Virus genome (UHGV): UHGV-0134920
DNA: 10,725 nt
Origin: a virus
Direction: 5' to 3' (one strand)
Numbering within the stretch: the stretch's first letter is position 1; each line of letters starts with the position of its first letter. The position numbers and the translations under genes were made by a program. Below the pieces are notes generated by a model, which was not told where the DNA came from, did not search any database, and saw only the letters and a list, made by a program, of their open reading frames with translations. Below, piece by piece: positions 4,161 through 10,725 of this stretch.

Positions 4161-4460
4161 ATGAAACTTAAATATTCTGGCTTAACTGCCAGTGGCAAAA
4201 CTCGCACTAAATTCATGCGCGGTGATATTTACCGCGACCAGTACGGCGGCACGGTAATGATTAAGGGCGTGGAGGAACGGCGCGTAACCTACCGTCGTGA
4301 AGGCTACGAATATGATTGCGTGATGCCTGTTTATCAGTTCGATCGTGATTTTTCTCTGGTGCAGGCCGTACCGCGTAACGTGCCCACCAGCAGGGAGAAA
4401 GCACGCGCCAATATTCAGGAAATAAAAAAGATGCTTAACGTATTCAGGGGTAAAAAATGA
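4161..4460 (+). CDS. hypothetical protein (99 aa)
   Basis: GGAG at 4146-4149 upstream; stop overlaps the primase start (ATGA at 4457-4460), indicating operon coupling with the replication gene. Confidence 0.5.
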   Translation: MKLKYSGLTASGKTRTKFMRGDIYRDQYGGTVMIKGVEERRVTYRREGYEYDCVMPVYQFDRDFSLVQAVPRNVPTSREKARANIQEIKKMLNVFRGKK

Positions 4461-6205
4461 AACTGGCACCGAACGTAAAAAAACAGCCACGCGGAATAAA
4501 ACACAAAGACACAGAGGTAATTATTTTCGCGGGTAGTGATGCCTGGTCGCACGCGAAACAATGGCAGGAGCAGGATGGCCCCGCATCCGGCGATAATGTG
4601 CCGCCTGTGTGGCTTGGGCCAAATCAGCTTGCCGAACTTGATGCACTGAAAATTGTTCCGGATGGAAAAAAACGCGTAAGGCTGTACCAGGCCGGAGAAC
4701 TGGATTTGGTGGAGACCAAAAAGATTGGTCAGAAGCTGGCGGCGGCAGATATTCAGGACGCAAATTTTTACCCCGAAGGAATGCACGTCCAGAAGTGTGA
4801 AAACTGGCGGCGCTATCTGAATGCTGAGCGTGAAAATATTGCCGCAGGGCTTACCATGCCGGAGCAGAAAAATACGCAACTGGCACAAATGGCAGACAGT
4901 GAGCGCGCACAGATGCTTGCTGGTCGATTTGATGGCGTTTGTGTGCATCCGGAAAGTGAAATCGTTCACGTATGGCGCGGCGGGGTATGGTGTCCGGTCA
5001 GCACAATGGAACTTAGCCGCGAAATGGTGGCGATCTATTCAGAGCACAGGGCCACTTTCAGCAAGCGCGTAATCAATAACGCCGTGGAAGCGTTAAAAGT
5101 TATTGCCGAACCAATGGGCGAGCCGTCCGGCGATTTGCTGCCGTTCGCCAATGGTGCGCTTGACCTGAAAACGGGGGAATTTTCCCCGCACACGCCGGAG
5201 AACTGGATCACCACGCACAACGGCATTGAGTACACGCCACCAGCACCAGGGGAGAATATCTGCGACAACGCGCCAAACTTTCATAAATGGCTTGAGCACG
5301 CAGCCGGAAAAGACCCGCGCAAGATGATGCGTATATGTGCCGCGCTGTACATGATTATGGCGAACCGGTACGACTGGCAGATGTTTATTGAGGCCACCGG
5401 AGACGGCGGGAGCGGCAAAAGTACATTCACCCACATCGCCAGCCTTTTAGCGGGGAAACAAAACACGGTAAGCGCGGAAATGACATCGCTTGATGATGCT
5501 GGTGGGCGTGCGCAGGTTGTCGGGAGTCGTCTTATCGTCCTGGCAGACCAGCCGAAATATACAGGCGAAGGCACGGGCATCAAGAAAATCACGGGCGGCG
5601 ACCCCGTGGAAATCAACCCGAAATATGAAAAGCGTTTCACTACGGTAATCAGGGCGGTGGTGCTGGCGACCAATAACAACCCGATGATATTCACCGAACG
5701 GGCCGGAGGCGTGTCACGTCGTCGGGTTATTTTCCGCTTCGACAATATCGTAAGCGAGGCAGAAAAAGACAGGGAGCTACCGGAAAAGATCGCGGCTGAA
5801 ATCCCAGTCATTATCCGCCGCTTGCTGGCGAACTTTACCGACCCTGAGAAGGCACGGGCTTTACTACTGGAACAGCGTGACGGTGATGAAGCTCTGGCAA
5901 TAAAGCAACAGACGGATCCGGTTATTGAGTTTTGCCAGTTCCTGAATTTTCTGGAGGAAGCGCGCGGCCTGATGATGGGTGGCGGTGGCGATTCAGTGAA
6001 GTACACGACCAGGAACAGCCTTTACCGCGTCTATCTGGCGTTTATGGCATACGCCGGAAGGAACAAGCCGCTAAACGTGGCTGAGTTCAGCAAAGCTATG
6101 AAGCCAGCGGCGAAAGTTTACGGGCATGAATATATTACGCGGAAAGTCAATGGAGTTACGCAGACTAACGCAATAACAACAGACGATTGCGACGCGTTTT
6201 TATAA
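4457..6205 (+). CDS. replication initiator, P4 alpha C-terminal-like SF3 helicase/NTPase (primase-helicase family)
   Basis: 582 aa; Walker A GDGGSGKST, Walker B-like RLIVLADQP and SF3 motif C VVLATNNNP. Followed immediately by an iteron array. A catalytic primase (toprim/AEP) domain cannot be confirmed by eye. Confidence 0.85.
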   Translation: MKLAPNVKKQPRGIKHKDTEVIIFAGSDAWSHAKQWQEQDGPASGDNVPPVWLGPNQLAELDALKIVPDGKKRVRLYQAGELDLVETKKIGQKLAAADIQDANFYPEGMHVQKCENWRRYLNAERENIAAGLTMPEQKNTQLAQMADSERAQMLAGRFDGVCVHPESEIVHVWRGGVWCPVSTMELSREMVAIYSEHRATFSKRVINNAVEALKVIAEPMGEPSGDLLPFANGALDLKTGEFSPHTPENWITTHNGIEYTPPAPGENICDNAPNFHKWLEHAAGKDPRKMMRICAALYMIMANRYDWQMFIEATGDGGSGKSTFTHIASLLAGKQNTVSAEMTSLDDAGGRAQVVGSRLIVLADQPKYTGEGTGIKKITGGDPVEINPKYEKRFTTVIRAVVLATNNNPMIFTERAGGVSRRRVIFRFDNIVSEAEKDRELPEKIAAEIPVIIRRLLANFTDPEKARALLLEQRDGDEALAIKQQTDPVIEFCQFLNFLEEARGLMMGGGGDSVKYTTRNSLYRVYLAFMAYAGRNKPLNVAEFSKAMKPAAKVYGHEYITRKVNGVTQTNAITTDDCDAFL

Positions 6206-6491: not shown

Positions 6492-6806
6492 ATGCGCATA
6501 CATCAAAATAACTTAACAAACATATCAGCCGAAAACATGAATCAGGGGCGACAAATGGCCATAATTCACAGAGACAGAACACAGGCAAAATATAAAGCGT
6601 TAGACATGACAGAGCTTTCCCTAAAGGTGGCAATCAGAACGATAGACCGCCACACGCGGGAAGGATACGCGAAGGAACATCCCGACCTGATAAGCGCATT
6701 CATGACCACGGCGGCGGCAAACTTTGCCACGCTGACAGAACGGGAGATTGCCGAAGCGGAACAGGTAACAACCATCAACGTTAAAACCGGAGAGCAGACA
6801 GCATGA
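6492..6806 (+). CDS. hypothetical protein (104 aa)
   Basis: GAGGGGGG RBS at 6475-6482; stop overlaps the ssb start (ATGA at 6803-6806). Alternative internal starts at 6536 and 6555. Confidence 0.5.
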   Translation: MRIHQNNLTNISAENMNQGRQMAIIHRDRTQAKYKALDMTELSLKVAIRTIDRHTREGYAKEHPDLISAFMTTAAANFATLTEREIAEAEQVTTINVKTGEQTA

Positions 6807-7213
6807 CAGCACAGATAGCAGCTTACGGGCGGCTGGTGGACGACCCGCAGGTAAAACAGACCAGTAAGGGCACACCGATGACGCTGGCGCGTATGGCGGT
6901 ATCGCTGCCATGCAGCCAGGCACAGGATGGACAGGCGACGTTATGGCTATCGGTCATCGCATTTGGTAAGCAGGCCGACTTCCTGGCTAAACATCAAAAA
7001 GGCGACGTTGCCAGCGTATCCGGCACGATGCAGGTCAGCCAGTGGACCGGACAGAACGGGGAAACGCGGCAGGGCTGGCAGGTTATTGCAGACAGCGTAA
7101 TCAGTGCCCGTGCGGCACGTCCTGGCGGGAACAGACGCAAGACCACAGGCACACAGGGTAATCAGCCACCAGCGGGAGGCGATGCCCCTTACGGTGATGA
7201 TATTCCGTTCTGA
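6803..7213 (+). CDS. ssb: single-stranded DNA-binding protein
   Basis: 136 aa; OB-fold SSB pattern (AYGRLVDDPQVKQTSKG...WLSVIAFGKQADFLAKHQKGDVASVSGTMQVSQW), Gly/Pro/Gln-rich linker and acidic C-terminal tip ...GDDIPF typical of bacterial and phage SSBs. Confidence 0.85.
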   Translation: MTAQIAAYGRLVDDPQVKQTSKGTPMTLARMAVSLPCSQAQDGQATLWLSVIAFGKQADFLAKHQKGDVASVSGTMQVSQWTGQNGETRQGWQVIADSVISARAARPGGNRRKTTGTQGNQPPAGGDAPYGDDIPF

Positions 7214-7223
7214 GGGGGTGAGG

Positions 7224-7472
7224 ATGGTACATGACCGCATAGCGGAGGAACTCGAGGCAAAAGGCTTTTACCGGAGGGCGGCGGCACGATGGGGTGAAGT
7301 CATGCAACTGGTGGAGACAGACAAGGAACGGCATCAGGTTACGATGCGACGGCTGGAATGTTCCAGGAAGGCACAGAGGCCACCGGAGCCGCCAACGGAG
7401 AACTATGCAGACCTGAGAAATGCAGTAAATCGCACTTACGCAGACATGGGGCTGAGCAAATTAGCAGAGTAG
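7224..7472 (+). CDS. possible PerC-family-like transcriptional regulator (tentative)
   Basis: 82 aa from ATG 7224 (alternative GTG 7218). Motif EELEAKGFYRRAAARW resembles the conserved PerC/Pch segment as recalled. The N-terminal part of the 122-aa track ORF overlaps ssb out of frame and is rejected. Confidence 0.4.
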   Translation: MVHDRIAEELEAKGFYRRAAARWGEVMQLVETDKERHQVTMRRLECSRKAQRPPEPPTENYADLRNAVNRTYADMGLSKLAE

Positions 7473-7495
7473 GAATACCAGAACCACACCACACA

Positions 7496-7518
7496 GCCGG
7501 AGCAATCCGGCTTTTTTG
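7496..7518 (+). terminator. rho-independent terminator (first of two)
   Basis: GCCGG-agcaat-CCGGC hairpin followed by TTTTTTG. Confidence 0.5.
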
Positions 7519-7523
7519 CGCCC

Positions 7524-7566
7524 AAAAAAAGCCCGATAAGGTCAGAGGTGGCTTATCGGGCTTTTG
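7524..7566. terminator. bidirectional rho-independent terminator
   Basis: 10-bp stem GCCCGATAAG (7531-7540) / CTTATCGGGC (7552-7561), flanked by A7 upstream and TTTTG downstream. Confidence 0.6.
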
Positions 7567-7641
7567 CATATGAGGTTTTTTGGTGCACTGACACACATGA
7601 TCGGGATAATCATTTCATAATTTGCAACGCAACTCAATATC

Positions 7642-7696
7642 ATTGCACAAAATGCAATCATGATTATAATCATAACTGGATGAACATCCAGTTATG
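7642..7696 (+). promoter_or_regulatory. candidate sigma70-type promoter of the head operon overlapped by palindromic operator-like sites
   Basis: -35-like TTGCAC (7643-7648), 16-nt spacer, consensus -10 TATAAT (7665-7670). Palindromes ATTGCA-caaaa-TGCAAT (7642-7658), TGATTATAATCA (7661-7672) and perfect 12-bp arms CATAACTGGATG-aa-CATCCAGTTATG (7671-7696). Confidence 0.5.
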
Positions 7697-7726
7697 ATTT
7701 TTTAAGTCAAAGAGGAATTTCTTACT

Positions 7727-7933
7727 ATGGCTGAAGAGAAAAAAGGCGGTGTTTCGGTGTACATAAGCCCCGACATCGTGAAGGCGCTCAAGGAACGCCA
7801 CCAGCAGAACGTAAAAGCAGGCATTGCGGCAGGACTTGATCCGCTGGCGATGGTTGAGCCGTCAACAGGCTGGCAGGTACGCGCCTATTTACGCGCGGCG
7901 CTGGGTATGAATCAGGTTCACGGGGGTGAATAA
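7727..7933 (+). CDS. hypothetical protein (68 aa), first gene of the head operon
   Basis: AGAGGA RBS at 7711-7716; stop TAA overlaps the capsid gene ATG (7931-7935). Confidence 0.5.
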   Translation: MAEEKKGGVSVYISPDIVKALKERHQQNVKAGIAAGLDPLAMVEPSTGWQVRAYLRAALGMNQVHGGE

Positions 7934-8988
7934 TGACAGTAAAAGCAATAGCACTTAACACTAACCAGCTTTTTGCGTACCTGAATCGCGAGGATATTGC
8001 GGAATTTAAATTCAGTCCGCTGTTTACCGCGCTGTTTTTCCCGAACGTGGCGACATTCAACACACAGGACATCATGTTAGATAACCTGGATATTGAAGAA
8101 GTCACTATGTCGGCGTTTTGTTCGCCTATGGTGGGTAGCCAGGTTCAGCGCGATAAAGGGTACGAAACAAGCATTATTCGCCCTGGCTACATGAAGCCAA
8201 AACACGAAATCGATCCATTAAAAACAATAATGCGCATGGCTGGAGAAGATCCAGCACAGCTTAACGACCCTACCTACCGCCGTATGCGCCTGATTACTGG
8301 CAACATGCGCCGCCAGATAAACGCCATTAAAGCGCGCGAGGAATGGCTGGCGGTAAATGCGGTAACGACCGGAAAAAACATCATTGAGGGCGAAGGCATA
8401 GAGCGCTATGAAATCGACTGGAAGATACCGGAAAAAAACATCATAGAGCAGGCCGACGGTAAAAAATGGTCAGAGCAGGACAAAGACATACACGACCCAA
8501 TCTATGACATTGAGCTATACGCAGATCAGGCAGGTTGCCCCGCAAACGTCATGATTATGGGCGTTGATGTATGGCGCATGTTACGCAGCTTTAAAAAATT
8601 CCGTGAACTGTACGATCTCTCCCGTGGTTCAGAATCCGCCGCAGAGCTGGCATGTAAAAACCTGGGCGAAGTGGTGAGCTTTAAAGGCTATCTTGGTGAT
8701 CTGGCCCTTATCGTCTATTCCGGCAAATACACTGACAGCGACGGCACAGAAAAATATTTCCTTGAGCCTGATTTGCTGGTCCTGGGCAACACCAACAATA
8801 AAGGGCTGGTGGCCTATGGTGCGATTATGGAACAGGAAGCGGTAAGAACGGGCGCAACGCAAAACATGTTTTACCCGAAAAACTGGATTGAGGACGGCGA
8901 TCCGGCGATTGAGTACGTGCAGACGCACAGCGCACCGCAGCCGGTTCCGGCAGATATTCGCAAATTTGTTACCGTCAAAATTGGTTAA
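7933..8988 (+). CDS. major capsid protein, lambda gpE family
   Basis: 351 aa; colinear similarity to lambda gpE as recalled (FKFSPLF..LFF; RPGYMKPKHEIDP; EDPAQLNDPTYRRMRLITGNMR; KGYLGDLALIVYSGKY; VLGNT; YPKNW; SAPQPVPAD). Confidence 0.9.
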   Translation: MTVKAIALNTNQLFAYLNREDIAEFKFSPLFTALFFPNVATFNTQDIMLDNLDIEEVTMSAFCSPMVGSQVQRDKGYETSIIRPGYMKPKHEIDPLKTIMRMAGEDPAQLNDPTYRRMRLITGNMRRQINAIKAREEWLAVNAVTTGKNIIEGEGIERYEIDWKIPEKNIIEQADGKKWSEQDKDIHDPIYDIELYADQAGCPANVMIMGVDVWRMLRSFKKFRELYDLSRGSESAAELACKNLGEVVSFKGYLGDLALIVYSGKYTDSDGTEKYFLEPDLLVLGNTNNKGLVAYGAIMEQEAVRTGATQNMFYPKNWIEDGDPAIEYVQTHSAPQPVPADIRKFVTVKIG

Positions 8989-9000
8989 CGGGGGGATTCT

Positions 9001-9336
9001 ATGGACACTCCATACATTGAGTTATTTGCAGGCAGTCAGCAGGTATCCACGACGCTGGTACATTTTGCCGCTGATGCTGGCGTTATTCAGGAATTTACCC
9101 CGCTGATGCTGGCGGACAATGGCGAGTTTAAGCCGTGGGATGGTCAGGAATCTGGCAAGGCTGTTTATCTGACTTCGTACCCCGTGGACACGTCAAAGCA
9201 GAAATCAGCACAGTGTTACAAGACGGGGATATTTAATATCGCCGCCGTAAACTGGCCTGAGAGCGCCGACACTGACGCGAAAAAATGCGCCGCCTTTGCG
9301 GGTTCTGGCGTATCCGTTCAGCCGCTGGCGCGATAA
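9001..9336 (+). CDS. head decoration protein, lambda gpD family
   Basis: 111 aa; matches to lambda gpD as recalled (TPLMLAD, KPWDG, YKTGIFN, WPESADTDAKKCAAFAGSG). Confidence 0.85.
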   Translation: MDTPYIELFAGSQQVSTTLVHFAADAGVIQEFTPLMLADNGEFKPWDGQESGKAVYLTSYPVDTSKQKSAQCYKTGIFNIAAVNWPESADTDAKKCAAFAGSGVSVQPLAR

Positions 9337-9348
9337 GCAGGGGAAACG

Positions 9349-9762
9349 ATGGCAACGAATGAAAGCATCATGGCGCTACCGCTGGCGAGTAAATTTAAAG
9401 CAGAAGCGCGGGCAATGGCTGACAGAGGTTTATCAACCTACGAGGCCGTATATCAACTCAACAAACTGGAAGAACAGGACAAGCCGCGCGCTGATGCGAT
9501 TATGGCGCTTCATGAGCATAAAGACTATCAGCCGCTGTTACGTGCAATGGCAAACGTGCCATGTATTAGCGTCGATAATGCTCGTGAAATCCTGAACATG
9601 ACCATAGAGCAGGAGCGCCCAAAGGTTGCACCAGAGCTTACCGCAGCCTTTGAAAACTTTATGGACATGCACAGCCCGCAAGCCGTATCAGCTGGCATGG
9701 CGTACGATGGCAGAAACCAGGGCGATGACGGCGACATCGATCGCATACTGAAAACCATCTGA
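9349..9762 (+). CDS. hypothetical protein (137 aa), last gene of the head operon
   Basis: CAGGGGAAA RBS-like sequence upstream of ATG 9349; acidic; followed by a strong terminator; no recognisable family. Confidence 0.55.
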   Translation: MATNESIMALPLASKFKAEARAMADRGLSTYEAVYQLNKLEEQDKPRADAIMALHEHKDYQPLLRAMANVPCISVDNAREILNMTIEQERPKVAPELTAAFENFMDMHSPQAVSAGMAYDGRNQGDDGDIDRILKTI

Positions 9763-9768
9763 GACAAG

Positions 9769-9792
9769 GCCGGAGAAATCCGGCTTTTTTTT
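9769..9792 (+). terminator. rho-independent terminator
   Basis: GCCGGA-gaaa-TCCGGC hairpin followed by T8 (9785-9792). Confidence 0.8.
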
Positions 9793-9824
9793 ACGGGTCC
9801 TTTCCGGCATATGGACCCGTTACG

Positions 9825-9858
9825 GGGCGGCGACCTCGCGGTTTTTCGCTATTTATGA
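9825..9858. other. lambda-type cos site (cosN core plus conserved flank)
   Basis: GGGCGGCGACCT at 9825-9836 equals the lambda 12-nt cohesive end as recalled. The next 22 nt CGCGGTTTTTCGCTATTTATGA (9837-9858) differ from the recalled lambda left-end CGCGGGTTTTCGCTATTTATGA at one position. Lies ~135 bp upstream of a Nu1-like gene, as in lambda. Confidence 0.7.
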
Positions 9859-9930
9859 GCCTTTTCAGGGGGGTGGTGGTGGTTTTGTTGTTTGCTCTAT
9901 CTTTATGAATGAAAAGGGAAAGATGCAAAC

Positions 9931-9968
9931 AATACACCAACCTGAAGCAGTAATTAAGTTGGTGTATT
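9931..9968. promoter_or_regulatory. 11-bp perfect inverted repeat abutting the terS start (candidate cosB/TerS-binding or translational control element)
   Basis: AATACACCAAC (9931-9941) and GTTGGTGTATT (9958-9968) separated by 16 nt; ends 1 nt before the ATG at 9970. Confidence 0.4.
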
Positions 9969-9969
9969 A

Positions 9970-10512
9970 ATGAAATCGCACCTGATGAACAAAAAAAACA
10001 TGGCGAAAAGCTGCCGTGTAAGTGCGACAGCGTTCGACAAGTGGGGAGTGACTCCCGTTGAACGTAAAGGCCGTGAGGCGTTTTACGATGTTGCCAGCGT
10101 GATAGACAATAGGGTTAACAATGCAATTAGCCAGCTTACAAACGACAAAGGCGATATTGATGATGATGAACTCTTACGAGTCAGGATCAGATTACTGACA
10201 GCACAGGCGGAGGCGCAGGAACTTAAAAACGAGCGCGATCGCGGTGACGTGATCGATACTGAGTTTTGCCTGTACGCGCTTTCAAAGCTGGCGAGTCAGA
10301 TTTCATCAATCATGGACAGCCTCCCGCTTACTATGCAAAGGAGCTTCCCACAGATTACCCCCGCCATGCTGGATAGGCTTAAAAGGGAAGTGGTTAAAGC
10401 CTGTAATGCCAGTGCCAGAGTTGCCGACAACCTCCCACAGATACTGGCTGATTACTTGAAAGAAACAACCGGAAACGTACCGGAAAAGTTGCAGCCGAAT
10501 AAAGATAAGTAA
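9970..10512 (+). CDS. terS: terminase small subunit, lambda Nu1-like with divergent N-terminal DNA-binding domain
   Basis: 180 aa (alternative start ATG 9985, MNKKN..., aligns better with the Nu1 N-terminus MEVNKKQ). C-terminal two thirds are similar to lambda Nu1 as recalled (RLLTAQAEAQELKNERDRGDVIDTEFCLYALSKLASQISSIMDSLPLTMQRSFPQ versus RLTRAQADAQELKNARDSAEVVETAFCTFVLSRIAGEIASILDGLPLSVQRRFPE). N-terminal ~55 aa are much less conserved. Confidence 0.8.
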   Translation: MKSHLMNKKNMAKSCRVSATAFDKWGVTPVERKGREAFYDVASVIDNRVNNAISQLTNDKGDIDDDELLRVRIRLLTAQAEAQELKNERDRGDVIDTEFCLYALSKLASQISSIMDSLPLTMQRSFPQITPAMLDRLKREVVKACNASARVADNLPQILADYLKETTGNVPEKLQPNKDK

Positions 10513-10523
10513 CGTAGTACGCT

Positions 10524-10725
10524 ATGACTGAATCCGAAATACTGCGATTAATCCGCCGCGTCTCTGGAATCAGCCAGCAGGCTGACGAACAGACCACGCA
10601 GCCGGACAGCGTGACAGCCGAAAACTATGCGCGTGTTGTTGCTGAGGTGATGCGCCGTGATGGTATAGAACTTAATGGCGTGGATATGCGCAACATACGA
10701 ACCAGAGTTCTTGAGTTGCTGGCCT
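10524..10725 (+). CDS. hypothetical protein, 5' partial (runs off the window)
   Basis: ATG at 10524, 12 nt after the terS stop; open to the window end (MTESEILRLIRRVSGISQQADEQ...). No resemblance to the lambda gpA N-terminus as recalled. Confidence 0.45.
   Translation, partial: MTESEILRLIRRVSGISQQADEQTTQPDSVTAENYARVVAEVMRRDGIELNGVDMRNIRTRVLELLA

Follow-up and report, generated by a model that had tools for sequence, protein, structure and literature searches.

The 10,725-nucleotide stretch of virus genome UHGV-0134920 analyzed here (below, the window) is by its gene content a gram-negative phage-inducible chromosomal island (PICI) of the EcCICFT073/EcCIIHE3034 type, and our subject is its gene terS at positions 9970–10512, which judging from profile and alignment matches is a real, full-length small terminase (TerS) of the phage lambda Nu1 family. 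On balance, we favor the interpretation that this TerS binds R elements in a cosB site of the island's own, which the helper phage's Nu1 would be unable to read, and that it recruits the helper's large terminase (TerL) to cosN and cosQ sites of lambda type. Redirection of helper TerL seems to us the most economical function for this protein because its gene is PICI-borne, lies 3′ of the island's own cos site in the slot that rppA occupies in a related island, and has no near-identical counterpart among phage TerS.

TerS as a full-length member of the Nu1 family

An initial annotation had called the open reading frame (ORF) at 9970–10512 a Nu1 homologue, and profile searches bear this out. The Pfam family PF07471 (Phage_Nu1) matches amino acids (aa) 33–148 with 83 bits (E = 2.3e-23) against a curated cut-off of 30 bits, the PHROG 57 profile "terminase small subunit" covers aa 1–175 (E = 2.9e-53), and hhalign pairs a profile of the TerS family with lambda Nu1 from one end to the other, residues 6–166 onto 3–180, with 99.9% probability (E = 3e-31). 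In BLASTP, identity to TerS is 46% for gp1 of phage N15, 35% for lambda Nu1, and 33% for the 21-like TerS of CFT073 prophage 4; NCBI annotates its relatives as "terminase small subunit". Against the PDB, phmmer with the single protein returned noise only, and lambda TerS was reached only with the family profile, whose closest match was lambda TerS 1–101 (6hn7_B, E = 0.007), with 1j9i at only E = 0.88. NCBIfam gave no match for TerS or for the neighboring small ORFs. An AlphaFold2 model built from a 24-sequence family alignment was of low confidence (predicted local distance difference test [pLDDT] 57, predicted template modeling score 0.29), with the N-terminal region below a pLDDT of 50; its secondary structure comprises a helix-turn-helix (HTH), a beta wing, a helix, and long helices. 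Because the model is poor, our structural conclusions on TerS are limited to this secondary structure. We divide the gene and its product as follows:

9970–10512, plus strand: terS, encoding a 180-aa Nu1-family small terminase, ATG start
aa ~5–50 of TerS: predicted winged-HTH domain of the N15 class
aa 51–70: short acidic linker
aa 71–125: conserved helical core
aa 126–166: variable C-terminal segment, presumed to dock TerL
last 14 aa: tail unique to the E. coli lineage

A constant DNA-binding domain and a variable C-terminus

Compared with lambda Nu1, TerS is 36% identical over aa 1–50, 10% over aa 51–70, 55% over aa 71–125, and 32% over aa 126–166, and the corresponding values for N15 gp1 are 59%, 25%, 51%, and 32%. 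An ungapped alignment matches the N-terminus to the DNA-binding domain of N15 gp1 at 59–61% identity, and the AFDKWG recognition-helix motif, part of the wider class motif LLNK..MA.S..(V/I)S..AFDKWGV.PV...GRE.F(Y/F)DV, is invariant between the two proteins. By this homology, the N-terminus of TerS is most likely a winged-HTH domain of the phage N15 class, which is also found in TerL-adjacent TerS of Pseudomonas, an unclassified Enterobacterales genome, Glaciecola, and Thalassotalea. The core at aa 71–125 is the region best kept with lambda-type TerS (49–59% identity). The last 41 alignable residues, 126–166, lie opposite approximately the last 40 of Nu1, which have been described as the part that binds TerL (gpA; PMC9026076), and at around 32% identity to lambda, N15, and 21 they are as divergent as the N-terminus. 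Within this segment, F126, P127, K138, A144, N146, P156, L159, and Y162 are invariant in lambda, N15, PhiR5_1, and the E. coli satellites, and the ending ...P..L..Y(L/I).(E/Q) of TerS proteins like that of the window is common to lambda, N15, PhiR5_1, and PhiR12 but not to 21-type TerS. The closest phage C-termini are those of PhiR5_1 (52%) and PhiR12 (range 48–52%) over 50 aa.

Among the satellite proteins, conservation peaks in the DNA-binding domain, whose mean pairwise identity is 83%, and is close to its lowest in segment 126–166 (53%); for the E. coli group alone these values are 92% and 71%. The initial annotation had recognized an island TerS with altered DNA specificity but misdescribed which ends are conserved and which vary. 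It had likened the C-terminal two thirds to Nu1 and called the N-terminus divergent, and the figures of 36% for the N-terminus and 55% for the core agree with that; since the last 41 residues are as divergent as the N-terminus, however, it is the middle third of TerS that resembles Nu1. Its picture of a swapped or foreign DNA-binding domain had to be dropped, since this domain shows homology to the N15 class and no region of the family is better conserved, and the supposed retention of the TerL-docking half does not fit a segment that is only 53% identical within the family and around 30% identical to lambda, N15, and 21.

The TerS of a Superficieibacter sp. satellite (L018, 4001–4501) is a mosaic whose DNA-binding domain shares 85% identity with those of the other satellites and 35% with that of lambda, and whose C-terminal half is of lambda type, with 85% identity to Nu1 over aa 100–125 and 66% over aa 126–166. 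This chimera suggests recombination with a helper's nu1 gene, and its lambda-type C-terminal half is as expected if the C-terminus is matched to the TerL of the helper.

The cos site and cosB elements of the island

The gene terS lies directly 3′ of cosQ, cosN, and a cosB with R-like repeats (9872–9968), as is characteristic of the Nu1 family. The elements are:

9794–9808, plus strand: cosQ-like element CGGGTCCTTTCCGGC
9825–9836, plus strand: cosN cohesive-end sequence GGGCGGCGACCT, identical to the lambda left end and invariant in an 8-satellite alignment
9872–9895, plus strand: R3-like element of the island cosB, (GGT)4 followed by TTTGTTGTTTGC, 48–71 bp from the nick
9925–9942, minus strand: inverted R3-like copy (R2-like), 29 bp downstream of R3
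9958–9968, plus strand: R1-like element in direct orientation, abutting the terS start codon

The element CGGGTCCTTTCCGGC stands at an equal distance 5′ of cosN in a lambda-type helper prophage, PhiR5_1, EcCICFT073, and all satellites compared, and its role as cosQ is deduced by analogy with lambda cos (PMC9026076). Beyond bp ~33 from the nick, the island cosB shows no similarity to the lambda R sequences. What it has instead is the (GGT)4 at 9872–9883 (bp 48–59 from the nick), followed by TTTGTTGTTTGC, which runs to 9895. The sequence GGTGGTGGT is found nowhere else in the window (chance expectation 0.04 copies), and the block GGTGGTGGT-TTGTT-TT (bp 51–68) is invariant in the 8-satellite alignment as well as in the Kosakonia and Superficieibacter loci, and hence in Escherichia, Enterobacter/Citrobacter, Kosakonia, and Superficieibacter; the cosB on either side of it diverges. 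In N15, R3 was genetically defined as GAGGTTGTTGTT at bp 48–59, with bp 54–59 being most important (PMC4669245). The satellite R3-like element has the same position and the same G-N-T triplet character as N15 R3 and includes a 10/13 match to it that is shifted by 9 bp. All N15-class phage TerS genes that we retrieved are likewise preceded by GTTGTT-rich DNA.

The inverted copy at 9925–9942 is complementary to the R3-like element at 14 of 18 positions, which only 1 of 300 shuffles equaled, and its core AATACACC(A/C)AC(C/T)TG is kept in the Escherichia, Kosakonia, and Superficieibacter satellites. Sequences 9931–9941 and 9958–9968 form a perfect 11-bp inverted repeat, a length reached by 0 of 300 shuffles, and its right arm is the R1-like element. 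The predicted cosB order of R3, inverted R2, and R1 resembles that of lambda cosB and of the "Monarch" group, whose R sequences are of N15 type (Feiss et al. 2015, PMC4669245). The conserved DNA-binding domain together with the conserved cosB motif indicates purifying selection, and the conservation pattern taken with the Superficieibacter mosaic argues for a constant pair of DNA-binding domain and cosB combined with an exchangeable TerL-facing end.

As RNA, the 11-bp repeat would form a hairpin of −16 kcal/mol (z = −3.7; window 9920–9985) that ends 1 nucleotide before the terS start, where no clear Shine-Dalgarno sequence is seen. The right arm is partly conserved in other variants, and candidate roles of the repeat are at the level of DNA (R elements) or in translation control. 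A scan for sigma-70 promoters and terminators found no terS promoter, and the only terminator-like hairpin follows the upstream ORF (9766–9787), with counts at the level of shuffled sequence.

Alternative cassettes on one island backbone

The window has the int-alpA-pri/rep gene order and the size of about 10–11 kb that characterize gram-negative PICIs of this type, and annotation together with Pfam and PHROG searches of the window revealed no TerL, tail, or lysis genes. The view that terS is island-encoded therefore stands, with int, alpA, pri, and homologues of the lambda capsid genes E and D on the same element. A blastn comparison of the window with EcCICFT073 (L002) delimits the following unit:

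9866–10523, plus strand: exchangeable specificity cassette, cosB + terS

The two islands are 95% identical over 6627–9865 and 88% over 10524–10725; homology ends around 41 bp past the cosN nick and resumes at 10524. EcCICFT073 shows the same layout with a 144-aa ORF 3′ of cos that is Rpp (it matches the RppC structure 6hlk at 5e-31), and the cassette position holds cosB, rppA, and an inverted second cos. From this break and resumption of homology, it follows that cosB + terS and cosB + rppA are alternative cassettes on one backbone, and the former is most likely a functional alternative to the latter. The R3 core proposed for PICIs of the Rpp type, ACCACCACC at bp 55–63 (PMC9026076), is in EcCICFT073 (L002, 7612–7620) the exact reverse complement of the island's GGTGGTGGT (window 9872–9880, bp 51–59). 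An 11-mer in inverted orientation, GGTGGTGGTGT, is common to the Enterobacter/Citrobacter satellites and EcCICFT073.

The position of terS directly 3′ of a PICI cos, in the rppA slot of a collinear island, is that of an Rpp gene, but its 180-aa product with a full Nu1-type C-terminal region does not have the size of Rpp. The initial annotation had left membership in the Rpp family undecided; BLASTP against RppA gave E = 1.4, hhalign a probability of 0.07%, and the family profile searched against the PDB did not match RppC (6hlk), and we discarded this assignment.

A second, inverted cosQ-cosN copy lies downstream of rppA in EcCICFT073 (L002, 8275–8339) and downstream of terS in EcCIIHE3034 (L023, 10045–10110). 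Within the sequenced part 3′ of terS in the window, no second cos like that at 9794–9858 was found, and the next ORF starts after 11 bp.

Distribution among satellites and clues to the helper

We searched 50,697 phage genomes and, by blastn, 5426 complete E. coli genomes. The best match among phage TerS is N15 with 46% identity and nothing in the phage genomes exceeds it, so that the near-identity to a phage Nu1 that would mark an ordinary phage TerS was not encountered. The 3′ part of terS is present in 793 of the 5426 E. coli genomes, among them a derivative of Nissle 1917 and many O157:H7, O145, and O103 strains, and the ORF is intact (at least 80% coverage) in 791; "terminase large subunit" was never annotated under the match in these 793 genomes, which again led us to reject an ordinary phage TerS. 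A gene of the rppA/B type was detected in 110 of the 5426 genomes, a count that reflects the sensitivity of blastn and leaves out RppC-type genes.

Database homologues fall into two tiers, with 74–99% identity in E. coli and 57–60% in Enterobacter, Citrobacter, and related genera. All homologues of at least 54% identity are in satellites without TerL, while those of at most 46% identity are phage TerS, of which the ones from bacterial genomes overlap a TerL ORF of 642–656 aa. No such overlapping downstream TerL gene, as Nu1-family phage genes have, occurs in the window or in its annotated E. coli relatives, and this absence of a TerL gene beside terS marks it as a satellite copy.

The clade spans at least 5 genera and always shows the layout int-alpA-pri-capsid-decoration-cos-terS. 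Its contexts include PICIs at cspD-clpS (L001, L013) and beside tRNA-Pro/yejM (L016) as well as helper-embedded PICIs, which sit in the capsid gene E of lambdoid prophages (L005–L008; Kosakonia L017) or in the portal gene B (E. coli L011, strain 23CRST007, and L012, strain AHB4). Strain N10 carries the same island as the window between cspD/yljB and clpS, and relatives at cspD-clpS are flanked by a ATGATAGTTAT repeat. The satellites inserted in gene E (L005–L008, which are contigs of Enterobacter/Citrobacter type, and L017) have the same capsid-decoration-cos-terS module, and after them come a truncated Phage_cap_E ORF and FI, FII, Z, U, and V; in L005–L008, genes with an FRG domain and a DUF3892 domain come after terS.

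The TerS proteins of L011 and L012 are 82–87% identical to that of the window. The prophages that host them (upstream sequences L014 and L015) encode a Nu1 that is 99% or nearly identical to that of lambda and a gpA with 99% identity, and their cosB is of lambda type. In L011 and L012, the satellite's own terS and private cosB are only a few kb away from the lambda-type cos of the helper. The shared C-terminal ending and these host prophages would fit a lambda-like TerL partner. By its C-terminus alone, TerS would point to PhiR5_1 and PhiR12 as nearest to its helper, yet the embedded relatives sit in prophages with lambda terminase.

Proposed mechanism and alternative explanations

In the sequence of events that we propose, a lambdoid helper would induce the island, which would replicate and produce TerS. 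The predicted N15-class winged-HTH domain would then bind the G/T-triplet R elements of the private cosB, namely the R3-like element 48–71 bp from the nick, the inverted R2-like copy, and the R1-like copy at the start codon. Through its helical core and C-terminal segment, TerS would dock the helper's gpA-type large terminase at a cosN and cosQ identical to those of lambda, and as a consequence of this docking at the island cos, concatemers of the island would be cut and packaged into helper-derived heads. The helper's own Nu1 would be unable to read the island cosB.

Several points weigh against this interpretation. DNA binding, TerL docking, redirection, and interference by TerS are all functions that we infer from sequence. 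The C-terminal 41 residues are only around 32% identical to the TerS of lambda, N15, and 21, an identity as low as that between lambda and 21, and 21 is reported to differ from lambda in packaging specificity (PMC4669245), so that TerS may not dock directly on lambda gpA. In the R3-like motif, the GTTGTT half is 9 bp more distant from the nick than it is in N15, and in lambda the position of R3 is known to matter critically (PMC4669245). Transfer of EcCIIHE3034 and EcCI18098, two islands that encode TerS, was very rare after induction of resident prophages, and they have no known helper (PMC6092414). The low-confidence AlphaFold2 model (pLDDT 57) likewise lends the proposed mechanism no support.

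One competing explanation, which we consider rather unlikely, is that the island TerS works in the manner of Rpp and co-assembles with helper Nu1 via the helical core, so that the mixed oligomer would read the island cosB and not that of the helper, with gpA brought in by the tail of helper Nu1 instead of the C-terminus of island TerS. That the core is the part best kept with lambda-type TerS (49–59%), that the C-terminus is poorly kept with the Nu1 of the lambda-terminase prophages hosting island relatives, and that terS occupies the rppA slot would all agree with such a mode, as would the reports that Rpp heteromerizes with TerS and requires helper TerS (PMC6739421, PMC9026076). However, TerS has no sequence relationship to Rpp and retains a full-length alignable Nu1 C-terminus with 8 invariant residues between F126 and Y162, and the import of a lambda-type C-terminal half by the Superficieibacter relative is sensible only if that half is used. 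It is less probable still that TerS acts in interference or as a decoy by titrating helper TerL or binding helper DNA unproductively, which would protect hosts while island packaging proceeds independently. PICI genes of this region commonly mediate interference (PMC6739421) and the published TerS-type islands transferred very poorly (PMC6092414), but a pure decoy would need no dedicated cosB, and every satellite examined has beside its terS a perfect cosN and, at the canonical distance from it, the R-like elements of a conserved cosB. That terS might be a non-functional relic of a degraded lambdoid prophage, as the missing TerL gene and an NCBI label that merely reads "terminase small subunit" could suggest, is highly improbable and effectively refuted already by the intact ORF in 791 of 5426 E. 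coli genomes, the clade's constant satellite layout across at least 5 genera, and the purifying selection seen in the DNA-binding domain and cosB motif.

Beyond redirection as we favor it, a more speculative extension would be that cassettes of the TerS and Rpp types are two solutions acting on the same private R element, with TerS using its conserved core to form mixed oligomers with helper Nu1 that, like Rpp, poison helper packaging; we hold this to be doubtful. Taken jointly, redirection and interference would then be united in one protein whose C-terminus is re-matched to new helpers by recombination, which we regard with the same reserve. If true, enterobacterial PICIs and helper-embedded PICIs would hijack packaging predominantly by the TerS class of 793 genomes and not by Rpp.

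Relationship to known systems

Fillol-Salom et al. (2018, ISME J, PMC6092414) noted that EcCIIHE3034 and EcCI18098 at cspD-clpS "encode TerS", unlike EcCICFT073 and the O42 element, and in SatelliteFinder terS serves as a core marker of PICIs and is characterized as "responsible for redirecting the packaging" (PMC10085698). Both the gene and the idea were therefore already known, and terS is a known kind of satellite gene, not a new kind of system. EcCIIHE3034 and EcCI18098 carry essentially the same gene as the window (175 of 180 residues are identical in the IHE3034 TerS) in the same island layout, with relatives at cspD-clpS. Compared with EcCIIHE3034, the window TerS differs in its last 5 residues, and the window does not have the inverted second cos right after terS. 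What PMC6092414 reports is the presence of terS and very low transfer, without a domain analysis, a cosB definition, a helper, or a mechanism.

N15 gp1 has the same class of N-terminal domain and a G-T-triplet R element at bp 48–59, and Monarch-type prophages share the three-element layout with an inverted middle copy (PMC4669245). The gene for N15 gp1, however, precedes that of its cognate TerL, and the C-terminus of gp1 is of lambda type (80% to Nu1), whereas the island TerS comes without a TerL gene and its C-terminus is only 32% identical. Moreover, N15 cosB contains a single R3, GAG(GTT)3, as opposed to the (GGT)4 and GTTGTT of the island's R3-like element. With lambda gpNu1, the island protein shares end-to-end homology and domain order, and the two systems have cosQ, cosN, and the cohesive end in common. 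They differ in that overall identity is 35–38%, the DNA-binding domain is of another class, the island linker is shorter, the island cosB is devoid of lambda R sequences, and the gpA-binding segment is 32% identical.

Rpp proteins (RppA/B/C) of EcCICFT073-type PICIs (Fillol-Salom et al. 2019, PMC6739421) are encoded in the same slot 3′ of the PICI cos on a 95%-identical backbone, their presumed purpose is likewise island-specific cosB recognition, and their R3 core ACCACCACC is the reverse complement of GGTGGTGGT. Unlike the island TerS, they are proteins of 144–153 aa without a TerL-binding tail (PMC9026076) that act by binding helper TerS. The TerS(S) of Staphylococcus aureus pathogenicity islands (SaPIs) is, as Ubeda et al. 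2007 are cited in PMC6739421 and PMC6092414, also a satellite TerS homologue that uses helper TerL and recognizes the satellite genome only. It belongs to an unrelated family and to headful (pac) packaging, whereas the window system is of cos type with a nick site and R elements, and no partner resembling the SaPI protein Ppi has been identified for the island TerS.

Overviews of satellite packaging list shared cos sites, pac-type SaPI TerS together with Ppi, and Rpp, but no characterized cos-type satellite TerS, and our literature search, which covered few papers from subscription journals, turned up no experimental work on a PICI TerS of cos type. Five aspects appear to be previously undescribed in searchable papers: the N15-class domain, the conservation of the cosB elements, the exchange of the cassette with that of rppA, the modularity of the C-terminus, and the 7:1 ratio of terS to rppA/B in complete E. 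coli genomes. Rpp is the only case in which experiments have established how gram-negative PICIs redirect packaging, so that, with terS in 793 and rppA/B in 110 of 5426 genomes, the common strategy is the uncharacterized one. The analysis provides several handles on it: a candidate binding site at 9872–9895 with an inverted copy at 9925–9942, an N15-class domain with existing genetics, prophages with lambda-identical terminase that host island relatives as natural helper candidates, and the natural domain swap of Superficieibacter that points to the C-terminus as a helper-matching module. Such knowledge would also be of use in designing PICI-based delivery vehicles whose packaging specificities are orthogonal.

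Other genes of the island

The remaining features of the window are as follows:

2–1261: integrase
1758–1964: AlpA
4161–4460: DUF4222 protein
4457–6205: D5_N/DUF5906 primase
6803–7213: SSB
within 7104–7472: PerC-like regulator (PF06069, E = 2e-35), annotated as a 249-bp gene in relatives
7933–9762, plus strand: upstream head-gene module comprising the capsid gene, the decoration gene, and the 137-aa ORF
7933–8988, plus strand: lambda gpE-like capsid protein (PF03864, E = 1e-49)
9001–9336, plus strand: gpD-like decoration protein (PF02924, E = 1e-17)
9349–9762, plus strand: 137-aa ORF (phrog_1999; weakly phrog_53)
10524–10725, plus strand: downstream ORF (phrog_1561) within which the window ends; 93 aa at full length in relatives (L001, 12825–13106)

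The PerC-family activator sits just 5′ of the head-gene module and may control the late capsid-cos-terS genes. The match of the 137-aa ORF to head-maturation protease/scaffold proteins is weak and falls in their C-terminal part (phrog_53, positions 494–567 of 583), and its slot is taken in other terS-type islands (L011, L013, L016, L005) by an AlpA-like HTH protein of 114–127 aa. The phrog_1561 ORF, which has no Pfam or NCBIfam match, directly follows both terS-type and rppA-type cassettes, and this placement hints at a role in packaging or interference that would be independent of the specificity protein used.

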